The translations under genes and the position numbers were made by a program. The notes beneath the pieces are model-generated. The model saw only the letters and a list, made by a program, of their open reading frames with translations, did not search any database and was not told where the DNA came from. Positions 53,142 through 55,464 of a DNA stretch of 64,000 nt are shown here, piece after piece (position 1 is the first letter of the stretch; each line of letters starts with the position of its first letter). Origin of the DNA: an uncultured bacterium (GTDB taxonomy: Bacteria; Chlamydiota; Chlamydiia; Chlamydiales; SM23-39); the NCBI GenBank assembly GCA_963716985.1, contig OY970323.1:1472001-1536000 (forward strand). The letters are read 5' to 3'.

Positions 53142-53203
53142 AGAACCTCAGTTTTTTGTTTTTTCAACTTCAGATTAAAAATAGTAAATAAAAAATGATG
53201 GCT

Positions 53204-53338
53204 TCAAGGAGAGTACTGGCTCAAGCGCCAGTAATAATGAGAAAAACAAAGAGAACGGAACCTATGCCCACAAGAATGGGGCAGGTGTTCAACGAGATGG
53301 TGTGTAAATTCTAATGATTCAGAATGGATCATCAACAT
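53204..53338 (-). CDS. Possible leader peptide (44 aa) upstream of the permease
   Basis: MLMIHSESLEFTHHLVEHLPHSCGHRFRSLCFSHYYWRLSQYSP; YYWR overlaps hairpin TACTGGC/GCCAGTA. Confidence 0.35.
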   Translation of the reverse strand: MLMIHSESLEFTHHLVEHLPHSCGHRFRSLCFSHYYWRLSQYSP

Positions 53339-53404
53339 ATCTTACGACTTTTTGCAACTGCTTCTAAATAAGTTCACATGTGGGTCTCCTGTCCATGGTT
53401 ACAC

Positions 53405-53580
53405 AAACTTTCTTTAAACTTGCTCATCACTCTATACTGCGCACTCTTCTAAAACGGGATGATCGTCGGTCTTACGACAAACGATCTCACCAATGATGTT
53501 ATCGGTGATGATGCAGACCAAGCTCATAATCGGGCGTTTAGCACCAATGCATTTCCGGCCTTTAAAGTCGTTGAAAGTTT
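53405..53580 (-). ncRNA. Putative IS110 bridge/seek RNA (~176 nt)
   Basis: Closing stem AAACTTTC..CTTTAAA / TTTAAAGAAAGTTT, two internal hairpins, and guide-like CCCGA-TTATGAGC (target) and CCCGT-TTTAGAAG (own end). Confidence 0.7.
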
Positions 53581-53627
53581 GCTTGATTACCTGTAAGTTT
53601 TAGTTGATTTTTGTTTTTAGCAAGCTA

Positions 53628-53729
53628 CTAGTGCTCTGTCATAGTTAAAATTTAGGATTATAAGTTTGGCAACGGTCGGCATAAACTCAAGTCAATTTAT
53701 CCTAAAATTAAAGGGTGACAGAGCACTAG
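53628..53729. mobile_element. 98-bp CTAG MITE, third copy, in the 3' end of the IS110 recombinase gene
   Basis: Matches 6061-6162; CTAG at 53628 and 53726. Confidence 0.9.
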
Positions 53730-55124
53730 CCCATATCCTAGTTCTCGTGCTCGTTTCTGCAATGACAATAGCTGTCTTTCTTTATATGCCTGTTCGTATG
53801 CAGCTTGTCCAACTTCTGTAAAATTTTTGCGCTCTTTCAGCATCGTATACAGAATTTTTGCAAGTTTATGTGCTGCCGCTGTGATCGCTTTTGGAGCACC
53901 GAGTCTTGCTCGCATCCTACGAAAATAGGCGCCAAGGGCTGTTTTGGAGCGGTAAAGGGCATTGGCTGCTAAGCGTAATGCTTGTGCTGCCCTGTTGGCA
54001 GTTGGCTTGGTCTTGCCGCTCAAAATCTTGCCACCGGAAATCTTGTTGCCGGGACAAAGCCCAAGCCAAGAAGCGAAATGTTTCGCACTCGGCCATTTGG
54101 ACATATCCATGCCAATCTCTCCTAGAATTTTTATAATCCCATTCACGTCCAGTCCGGGAATGTCAGTCAAGTTGACGTGAAGAATTCTTTCGAGAGAACC
54201 TTCTGCTTCAAAGTGATATGGACTGAGGTTGTATTTCGTCTTTTTCTGTGTTCCTCGCCCATTTTTACTTGAATGTTCTGCAGGAGTCGATCTTGGAGCC
54301 GGCATATTTTTTTTCGGTTGCGCTTCTTCCCATTTCTTCAGTACTTGCTCTATAGCCTCTTCGCACTCCAAAGCCTGTTGATGGAAAAAATCATAAGCTG
54401 CAAGAGCGTGTTTCAGCGCCAGTAGATGTTCCTCTCGATAGTTGCCATCGAGAGCTTTTGCAATTTCTTTTTCATCTTTTTTGCATCGAGGATCTCGATA
54501 TTTTGCTAAGACTAAGGGAGATCGTTCTCCAGAGACAATCGCTCGTATAATATTCATGCCTGTAGCGCCCGTAATGTCACTCACTACGTGATTGAGTTGG
54601 AGATTCATTTGCACGAGGGCTTTGTGCATCAATTGCACCTGCTGAGAGGCCAATTCAAATAAACGGCTTCTCTGCCTCACATATCCGCGAAGTATGACTC
54701 CTTCATCATCGGGACGAAATGATCCTCTAAGTAATCCGTAGGCGTGTAATTGTTGGATCCATTGGCAATCTTTTACATCGGTTTTTCTACCCGGGACTGT
54801 TTTGAGGTAATATGCATTTACCAATATGACATCTATCCCTGCCTGAGCCAAGATATCGTAAACCGGAATCCAGTATACTCCGGTAGATTCCATTGCTACG
54901 CTCCGGATCTCATTCTGTTGGATCCAGGACAGCATGTTCTTGAGATCCTCTGTGAAGGTTAAATACTCGCGTATTTCTTGGTGCCCATCGGGAAAACCGA
55001 TACAAATGAATACAGAGCTGGCTCCAATGTCTATACCGGCAACACACGGATTTATGGGAGCCAATCTAAAATTAGATGCAGATGCAGGTTGAGTTTTTGG
55101 ATATTTTTTGGTATTTTTTTTCAT
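53697..55124 (-). CDS. IS110 family DEDD recombinase (transposase)
   Basis: AGIDIG, MESTGVYW, GRKTDVKD, SWLGLCPGNKISGGK, AAAHKLAK; ATG 55124 with RBS AGAGG. Confidence 0.95.
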   Translation of the reverse strand: MKKNTKKYPKTQPASASNFRLAPINPCVAGIDIGASSVFICIGFPDGHQEIREYLTFTEDLKNMLSWIQQNEIRSVAMESTGVYWIPVYDILAQAGIDVILVNAYYLKTVPGRKTDVKDCQWIQQLHAYGLLRGSFRPDDEGVILRGYVRQRSRLFELASQQVQLMHKALVQMNLQLNHVVSDITGATGMNIIRAIVSGERSPLVLAKYRDPRCKKDEKEIAKALDGNYREEHLLALKHALAAYDFFHQQALECEEAIEQVLKKWEEAQPKKNMPAPRSTPAEHSSKNGRGTQKKTKYNLSPYHFEAEGSLERILHVNLTDIPGLDVNGIIKILGEIGMDMSKWPSAKHFASWLGLCPGNKISGGKILSGKTKPTANRAAQALRLAANALYRSKTALGAYFRRMRARLGAPKAITAAAHKLAKILYTMLKERKNFTEVGQAAYEQAYKERQLLSLQKRARELGYGLVLCHPLILG

Positions 55125-55464
55125 GACAAACCTCTTTAGTTGATGTTGTTTCAAATAATCGCGTCGATCATTCTACAGAGGTTTGTCATTTTTTGGGGGT
55201 TTTACCGTATTCTTGTGACCTCACTTATTTTTAGATGTTGCCAGAGACACAGTCCCGGTGAGGAGCTCATAAAGTTGAGGTAAATCCCAATTTTTGGGCT
55301 TTAAGCAACGGTTTATCCATAGAGGACGGAAGCGTTCAAAAAAAGTTTACGCCTCAACTTTATGAGCAGTTGCACTTTTTAGGTATTTTACTCTAAAGTG
55401 AAAAAAAAACAAGGCAGAAAAAAAGAACTCGAACATTTTGATCACTCAATTTGAACGGAGTCAA

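Follow-up and report, generated by a model that had tools for sequence, protein, structure and literature searches.

RNA-guided recombinases of the IS110 and IS1111 groups, whose bridge or seek RNA systems have been known since 2024, are intensely studied as programmable genome-editing tools. In the IS110 group the bridge RNA is reported to be located in the left end of the element, and it has been proposed that the RNA moved between the two ends once (PMC11208160); the order in which the guide for the bottom strand lies 5' of the guide for the top strand is described as that of this group (PMC11187229). Members of the IS1111 group are described as having a non-coding region downstream of the transposase gene, an RNA in which the top-strand match is 5' of the bottom-strand match, subterminal repeats 11-13 bp in length that are extended by 7 bp on the left and by 3 bp on the right, and transposases of 330-350 aa (PMC11187229).

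The locus described here, which lies in a 64,000-nt stretch of DNA from an uncultured member of the Chlamydiales (the window), adds a member to these systems. In the literature searched, the term 'bridge RNA' was found together with 'chlamydia' only in a review. An initial annotation had read the region 3' of a recombinase gene as a programmable guide RNA encoded by an IS110-family element, and this main reading holds on the basis of covariation, fold, an intact enzyme and exact element ends, with use of the RNA taken by analogy from known systems. Judged from sequence, we place at about 0.88 the probability that the flagged stretch is the gene for a bridge/seek RNA, the guide RNA of an RNA-guided DEDD/Ser insertion sequence from the IS110 family. 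That the RNA would be transcribed, bound by the recombinase and needed, and that strands would be exchanged by the chemistry of these enzymes, we infer from IS621 and ISEc11.

The element, its target and its ends

The source genome, a single contig of 2.07 Mb, contains four copies of the element (A to D) plus a solitary right end (fragment E), and copy C shows the native form of 1807 bp (Table 1). When the filled sites are compared with the empty site TTATGAGCAGTTGC, insertion is seen to be site-specific, to proceed without target duplication and to leave a core AG, which is found at both junctions (55267-55266 and 53362-53361) and provides the sole bases common to both junctions across all copies. 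The insertion point is exact because the genome holds four copies of the target repeat and six intact sites TTATGAGCAGTTGC. A core of AGC had been proposed earlier; its AG stands and its C does not, since copy D, fragment E and the wider family share AG only, and AGC is apparent only because the right flank happens to begin with C at the window site.

Copies A and B are each placed in one arm of a palindromic repeat. In the window the element sits between TTATGAG and CAGTTGC, the latter being the last seven bases of the repeat, which resume after the element at 53360-53354. The repeat is 115 bp long with perfect 22-bp terminal inverted repeats, and its four genome copies comprise three near 414.3k, 1911.9k and 1943.7k of C1 besides that in the window. 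L108, a relative from metagenomic data, occupies this very position in an identical target sequence. Copy D has decayed, with a stop codon and an insertion of ~2.9 kb that ends beside another copy of the miniature element (MITE) described below; its altered guides still fit its own flanks.

Table 1. Positions of the features discussed, in window coordinates unless prefixed C1, and copies of the element in the source genome.
Feature	Position	Strand	Remarks
Whole IS110-family element	53361..55265	-	1905 bp including nested 98-102-bp MITE; four copies with different flanks, 6 empty sites
Transposase ORF	53697..55124	-	475 aa here
Nested palindromic MITE	53628..53729	.	~100 bp, CTAG site, 31-nt inverted arms
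Bridge/seek RNA gene (probable)	53404..53581	-	covariance-model match 53572-53412; closing stem P1 extends to 53581-53404
Target-binding loop (predicted)	53516..53560	-	outer stem GGCCGG 53560-53555 with UUGGUC 53521-53516; inner hairpin GG(U)GC 53545-53541 with GCCC 53535-53532
Right-target guide	53549..53554	-	5' strand of target loop; AAAUG pairs RT5..RT1 of top strand; C 53549 pairs core G
Left-target guide	53521..53529	-	3' strand of target loop; UUAUG 53529-53525, core AG 53524-53523, then CU 53522-53521
Donor-binding loop (predicted)	53422..53514	-	long-range outer helix 53514-53504 with 53431-53422; inner stem GGUGA-GAUCG 53491-53482 with CGAUC-A-UCCC 53465-53456
Donor-loop 5'-strand segment AACAUC	53495..53500	-	no complement to first bases of left end; same sense as LE +27..+32 (55239-55234), beside left repeat
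Donor guide (right end)	53446..53453	-	3' strand of donor loop; UUUAGA + core AG; identical to last 8 bases of element
Insertion target	55266..55373	-	left 108 of ~115 bp of palindromic repeat with 22-bp terminal inverted repeats
Left-end features	55223..55265	-	first bases CTCCTCA 55265-55259; GC-rich hairpin 55258-55241; AACATC 55239-55234
Right end	53361..53373	-	right inverted repeat ACTTATTTAGA, then core AG
Copy A			window copy; left flank (before LE) TTATGAG, right flank (after AG) CAGTTGC
Copy B			identical to A across entire 1905-bp element, at another site; left flank TTATGAG, right flank CAGTTGC
Copy C			99-100% identical; without MITE; left flank TTATAAG, right flank CAAAACA
Copy D	C1:852665-857356		97-98% identical; stop codon; split by ~2.9 kb; left flank TTCAGAG, right flank GCAATCG
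Fragment E	C1:1579719-1579779		solitary right end, 64 nt; no left flank, right flank GGTATTC

The left end (LE) begins CTCCTCACC and the right end (RE) terminates TTTAGA-AG. The two are linked by an imperfect inverted repeat, of 11 bases at the right (ACTTATTTAGA, composed of a conserved 5-nt subterminal motif plus donor bases) and 13 at the left (TCTAAAAATAAGT, 55235-55223, with two extra A), the right copy of which stops 2 bp from the end while the left copy begins at +31, ~30 nt inside the element. This repeat was revealed only by comparing ends across relatives, and is absent from the top 25 pairs returned by an inverted-repeat finder for the whole element. The previous statement that the element has no clear IS1111-type subterminal repeats misses this displaced inverted repeat, the geometry of which differs from that of IS1111. 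The GC-rich hairpin of the left end was judged by eye across relatives.

The transposase and the nested MITE

The protein has an N-terminal DEDD_Tnp_IS110 domain (PF01548, 3.6e-18) and a C-terminal Transposase_20 domain (PF02371, 1.2e-11), and scores 245.8 bits against the NCBIfam model NF033542, 'IS110 family RNA-guided transposase', whose cut-off is 140. Its alignment to IS621 (8wt6) is weak, with an E value of 8.9e-10 over two short stretches, in which GIDIG, MESTG and KISGG align to D11, E60 and S241 of IS621; a TDVKD motif, read from the sequence outside the aligned stretch, sits where the other two Asp residues are expected. The catalytic D, E, D..D and the Ser of a GL-P----SG motif are therefore all represented.

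The native end of the open reading frame can be read from copy C because this copy is without the MITE; there the transposase has 469 aa, ending ...GYGLVAC, and the region from its stop to the right end is 256 nt. In copies A and B the MITE replaces the last transposase codons and shifts the RNA gene 98 bp farther from the open reading frame. At least 27 further full-length copies of the MITE are found in the genome among the matches listed, several of them arranged in tandem pairs, and insertion is at TA/CTAG.

It is conceivable that the RNA gene is genuine and the window copy disabled, the MITE having altered the C-terminus of the transposase and split the RNA from its transcript. The MITE does lie between the body of the open reading frame and the RNA, the last residues differ from those of copy C, and a promoter scan, which found 3 promoter-like sites in the region vs 4.0 expected from shuffles, placed none on the RNA strand inside the element. 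We nevertheless regard a disabled copy as rather improbable, because the MITE-bearing copies A and B are identical over 1905 bp at two different sites, which indicates that this form moved recently, possibly with help in trans from copy C.

The leader of the transposase gene contains a 17-nt hairpin with 94% complementarity (55123-55139 with 55173-55189), in which the ribosome-binding site and start codon are paired to an upstream segment. This hairpin probably holds down translation, and it is the source of a weak 'mir-255' match to Rfam.

A predicted conserved, branched RNA downstream of the gene

The region downstream of the transposase gene is predicted to encode a structured RNA. A covariance model of it (R1) scores 176.9 bits at the window locus, the fold z-score of the region is -2.66, and relatives drawn from genome and metagenome collections provided 17 loci in which the 3' region could be aligned by BLAST. 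In the fold model on 16 sequences, 90.4% of cells are paired and 12 pairs show compensatory changes, a value reached by 0/500 shuffles. With 63 distinct sequences, in an alignment that was fitted to the covariance model and so favours that model, 87.9% of cells are paired vs 61.6% when shuffled, 31/34 pairs are compensatory, and the covariation score is 0.657 vs at most 0.13 for slid partners. A search of Rfam over 53200-55400 at a permissive threshold returned 7 weak matches, all far below their gathering scores, and no family that covers the RNA.

The long closing stem noted earlier is real and consists of two parts, P1 (53581-53573 with 53412-53404) and P2 (53569-53565 with 53421-53417). 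The flanks that form P1 pair better than at least 95% of shuffles in 13/16 homologs, and P2 has changes on both sides in 5/5 pairs. Within this stem lie two paralogous units, each of which is a large internal loop in the frame CAUUGGUG-hairpin-CCCG-guide; the target loop reads CAUUGGUGC-UAAAC-GCCCGA-guide and the donor loop CAUUGGUGA-hairpin-UCCCGU-guide. In the 17-locus alignment, the invariant frames GCCCG...AGCUUGGUC and AUCCCG...AG-AGUG enclose hypervariable bases at the guide positions. The pair types in the inner hairpin of the target loop include GC:47 with AU:16 and CG:33 with UA:26, and the long-range outer helix of the donor loop has compensatory changes in 6/10 pairs among 16 sequences and in 10/10 among 63.

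Of the two inner hairpins that had been proposed previously, GATCG/CGATC is supported by compensatory changes in 5/5 pairs. The other, TCACCGAT/ATTGGTGA, can form, yet 0/8 of its pairs are compensatory and its arms are part of two other helices that do covary. RNAalifold, run on 16 sequences, had chosen this hairpin together with a stem 78-82/152-156, and the long-range helix was preferred over that choice on the basis of compensatory changes. The same unsupported hairpin is the sole terminator-like match on the RNA strand.

The guides of the target loop

Guides for both target and donor can be read in the RNA in the same strand sense, as had been claimed, and the initial annotation had also suggested comparing the guide columns of a covariance model of homologs with the flanks and ends of each element. 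When this is done, the guides covary with flanks and right ends. For the left side of the target, the match of CCCGA-TTATGAGC at 53529-53522 to the left flank is confirmed; an 8-mer match in a 260-nt region on two strands has a chance expectation of ~0.008, although covariation is the more telling test. Copy C carries UUAUAAG and copy D UUCAGAG at the place of the guide, each fitting its own left flank. Between copies D and A, 9/190 aligned RNA positions differ, and 4 of these fall in the 12 guide positions (Fisher p 0.001).

Among close relatives and genome copies, which together have 10 distinct guides, the guide 7-mer is found exactly against the left end, at 7/7 positions, in 15/18 sites. 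The remaining 3/18 match at 6/7, two of them with an RNA G at a top-strand A, which is a G:T wobble on the bottom strand; in the third (L114) the left flank is the right end of another copy. Family-wide, elements have their own target guide at the left junction region in 41/63 loci vs 1.4% for foreign guides, a permutation statistic that, like the others used here, ignores the shared ancestry of the sequences. The own guide was not found in the search region in the other 22/63 loci, where some contigs are truncated and others may have imperfect sites.

The L114 locus (140-190, 2050-2100) is on a metagenome contig in which a right end is joined directly to a left end (RE-AG-LE) before a full copy, which could reflect either a circle junction captured in the assembly or two copies in tandem. 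The target guide at this locus, CTAGAAG, is similar to the right end of the element itself.

The two bases that follow the core in the left-target guide of the window, CU at 53522-53521, equal the first two bases of the left end, and this correspondence extends to the family (0.93 vs 0.47 and 0.72 vs 0.33, n=40). Six different dinucleotides occur at the extension; in L023, of the close clade, the RNA has CA and the left end CACC. The extension is not merely a longer core, because the first base of the right flank equals the first base of the left end in only 10/34 elements. In its position 3' of the 3'-strand guide, the extension resembles the handshake guide described for IS621 (PMC11208158).

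A guide for the right side of the target emerged when all RNA columns were compared with all right-flank positions, the best pair being G 53550, the last variable base in the 5' strand of the loop, with the first base right of the core (0.57 vs 0.25, z 5.8, n=56). At least 4 contiguous Watson-Crick pairs to the core G plus right flank are present in 26/54 elements vs 12.6% with foreign flanks, and these pairing runs start mostly at the core G. The support is weaker than that for the left-target guide. In the window, AAAUG-C matches CAGTT at 4/5 positions, with one mismatch to its own site; the guide of L108, AACUG-C, is perfect to the target; that of copy D has changed from UG to CC, fitting the first base G of its flank; and at the site of copy C only 2 bases plus the core match. 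The CTGC or TGCT segment that had been put forward as target guide is replaced by this assignment (53554-53549), since L108, which has the same target, carries CCGC. With a seven-base match on the left and a short one on the right, specificity therefore appears to lie mainly in the left seven bases, the right side being shorter and looser.

The donor guide and recognition of the left end

The previously noted identity of CCCGT-TTTAGAAG at 53453-53446 (in RNA, CCCGU-UUUAGAAG) to the right end at 53368-53361 was borne out by relatives. The donor guide tracks the right end, with TTTAGAAG in most, TTTAGGAG in L021 and L109, and TTAAAAG in L101, and family-wide an element's own donor guide is found at its right end in 57/62 cases vs 3.6% for foreign guides.

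The segment earlier taken as the left-end guide, GTGATGAGC (in RNA, GUGAUGAGC), forms the 3' arm of the long-range helix. Among relatives its changes do not track the left end; they are matched by changes in the 5' arm of that helix (CUACC/GGUAG, AGCGUUACC/GGUAACGCU and AUAAUCGCC/GGCGAUUAU). The guide map of the initial annotation as a whole, in which CTGC would read the right target, GTGATGAGC the left end, and TCACCGAT/ATTGGTGA would be a structural hairpin, is thus very improbable. It does account for a fit of GTGATGAGC to 8/9 bases of the left-end reverse complement, for the complementarity of CTGC to GCAG at the window site, and for the pairing of 97.7% of the hairpin across 16 sequences; these fits are outweighed by the variant CCGC at an identical target, by the presence of GTGATATGC or GTGATTTGC at the place of GTGATGAGC in relatives whose left end is CTCCCCACC, by the covariation of the GTGATGAGC segment with 53514-53504, and by the absence of compensatory change in the hairpin.

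In the revised map, no RNA complement of the first bases of the left end was found by k-mer matches, by column covariation or as longest complementary runs in five RNA segments. For the 5' strand of the donor loop against the left end, the mean was 2.83 with own ends vs 2.93 with foreign ends, so one of the four expected guides was not found by these comparisons. This strand does match the left end in a different way. In the window its segment AACAUC recurs inside the left end (Table 1), and with other sequences, matches of at least 5 nt occur at LE +16..+34 in 19/40 relatives; own matches of at least 6 nt to the left end are seen in 20/40 vs 21% with foreign ends. Neither the abstract of a study of ISPpu9 (PMC12288879) nor that of a preprint on two pathways (10.1101/2025.10.25.684509) explains this left-end match.

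The RNA gene on either side of the transposase gene

Searches with a covariance model trained on 16 sequences gave 54 matches in 80 loci and 76 in 79 loci. In the alignment of 64 loci with known gene position (A3), the RNA is downstream of the gene for the transposase in 15 and upstream in 49. Except for L138, the downstream loci have protein identities of at least 57%, and more distant relatives (36-50% protein identity) carry the homologous RNA upstream, as do two plasmid elements at 46-49% identity. Upstream RNAs are on the same strand as the gene, lie 70-110 nt from the left end, end shortly before the open reading frame, and keep the same frame and guide positions; the left search region contains the element's own target guide in 30/48 of these forms, and the right end contains its own donor guide in 44/48. 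A keyword search of a preprint on Nop5 and IS110 yielded nothing about where the RNA is located.

In a quick maximum-likelihood tree of 60 transposases made with IQ-TREE, from which duplicates and five rows with stops or short length had been removed, 13 downstream forms make up one clade (SH-aLRT 100) nested among upstream forms, and L138 is a separate long branch. Because the downstream clade is nested in this way, the RNA gene appears to have changed sides within the lineage. Both forms share their ends, with the 5-nt motif plus a 7-mer guide match at the right, and a GC-rich hairpin plus an inverted copy of the right-end motif at ~+30 at the left. One conceivable route of this switch, a plain circular permutation by way of a re-aimed donor loop, is unlikely, given that neither the hairpin and repeat of the left end nor the motif of the right end differs in place between the two forms.

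These comparisons also bear on whether the conserved 3' region might act as DNA only, as a transposase-binding end or a single-stranded DNA guide, without any RNA. Such a role would suit a region that is within 220 bp of the right end and includes the right inverted repeat; it is hard to reconcile with compensatory changes that preserve a branched fold of ~160 nt, with the presence of the same unit at the other side of the gene in 49 relatives, or with reports that the homologous IS621, ISEc11 and ISEc21 use RNA (PMC11208160, PMC11187229), and we give it very little weight. An RNA gene therefore remains the preferred reading.

Flanking sequences of relatives have features of their own. In many relatives with the upstream RNA (L152, L146, L139, L148, L031, L034, L150, L144, L153, L033 and L156) the guide-matching heptamer of the left flank recurs in the right flank: in L152, TCGGTAG is on both sides of the insertion sequence, in L139, L148 and L031 there is an offset of 1, and some flanks are tandem heptamer arrays. 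These repeated heptamers could mean either that the targets consist of repeats or that the mechanism leaves such a footprint. In L123, L028, L128, L027, L168, L030, L160, L173 and L086, the left flank is GTCA plus the guide heptamer, like the layout of the family's right end (motif plus 7-mer), as if these relatives had been inserted next to end-like sequences.

Comparison with known systems and a proposed mechanism

The window element could be an ordinary member of the IS1111 group with a seekRNA downstream of the transposase gene. It resembles ISEc11, ISPa11 and ISKpn4 in the downstream RNA, in having the guide complementary to the top strand 5' and that for the bottom strand 3', as reported for IS1111 members, and in guides that overlap at the crossover (PMC11187229, PMC11208160), and further in inverted repeats that link the regions near its ends and in a repeated palindromic target. 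However, it is set apart by the length of its transposase, which at 469 aa in the native form exceeds the reported IS1111 range by ~120-140 aa, and by the repeat geometry, its left repeat being ~30 nt rather than the reported 7 nt inside (PMC11187229); in addition, distant relatives have the RNA upstream, as do 49/64 related loci in all, with the 13 downstream forms in one nested clade. We therefore think it fairly unlikely that the element is simply an IS1111 member.

Its likeness to IS621 (PMC11208158; PDB 8wt6) includes two internal loops, guides that end in a 2-nt core common to target and donor, a two-base, handshake-like extension of the 3'-strand target guide, and the DEDD and Ser residues. 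Read on the opposite strand, the gene-strand core AG becomes CT, the core reported for IS621 (PMC11208158). The upstream position of the RNA in most relatives of the lineage is also as in IS621, whereas the window element departs from the IS110-group type in its downstream RNA and in the reversed strand order of its guides (an order seen in the upstream-type relatives too). A guide for the other half of the donor was not found. The published split, in which IS110 has the RNA upstream with one guide order and IS1111 has it downstream with the reverse order, fails as a strict rule, since members of one RNA family are found on both sides of the gene and always with the IS1111-like order. A move of the RNA between sides is seen again in the lineage of the window element, as far as sequences tell, and here the homology of the RNAs is still detectable.

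In the mechanism that we propose, the RNA would consist of a closing stem bearing two paralogous stem-loops, which serve the target and the donor, respectively. On the target side, the loop's 3' strand would read the core AG and the five bases that lie to the left of the insertion point, being identical to the top strand and pairing with the bottom strand, and would continue into the first two bases of the element's left end; the 5' strand of this loop would pair with the core G and with as many as five top-strand bases to the right of the insertion point. The right end of the element would be read, together with AG, by the 3' strand of the donor loop. If IS621 and ISEc11 are a guide, a complex of recombinase and RNA would bring the joined ends of an excised circle to DNA matching the target loop, and strands would be exchanged at AG.

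A further proposal, which we offer tentatively and consider doubtful at present, is that this lineage may be a third architectural type. Such a type would combine IS1111-like polarity, a core AG on the gene strand, an RNA gene on either side of the transposase gene (with one clade having gone from upstream to downstream while the end features stayed fixed), a handshake extension, and a donor loop that reads only the right end near the crossover, while its other strand would address a site that lies ~27 nt into the element from the left end, past a conserved DNA hairpin and next to the displaced repeat. If true, this would imply a mode of donor recognition not seen in IS621.

Implications

The points of interest at this locus are the re-aiming of guides within one genome and the side-switch of the RNA gene. 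Natural redirection is reported for ISMch6 relative to ISEc21, where, as here, the bottom-strand guide and the target flank have a few base changes in common (PMC11187229); at the present locus there are three guide/target pairs in one genome, in copies that are 97-100% identical, and copy D has changed the other guide too. These three near-identical elements amount to a natural experiment, in which the guides differ at one to four bases and the insertion sites likewise. In this lineage, the RNA positions that set specificity would be, on the left, AG and five further bases and, on the right, some one to five bases. Since genetic manipulation of chlamydiae is difficult, it is of interest that these bacteria have a native element of this type that was mobile recently.
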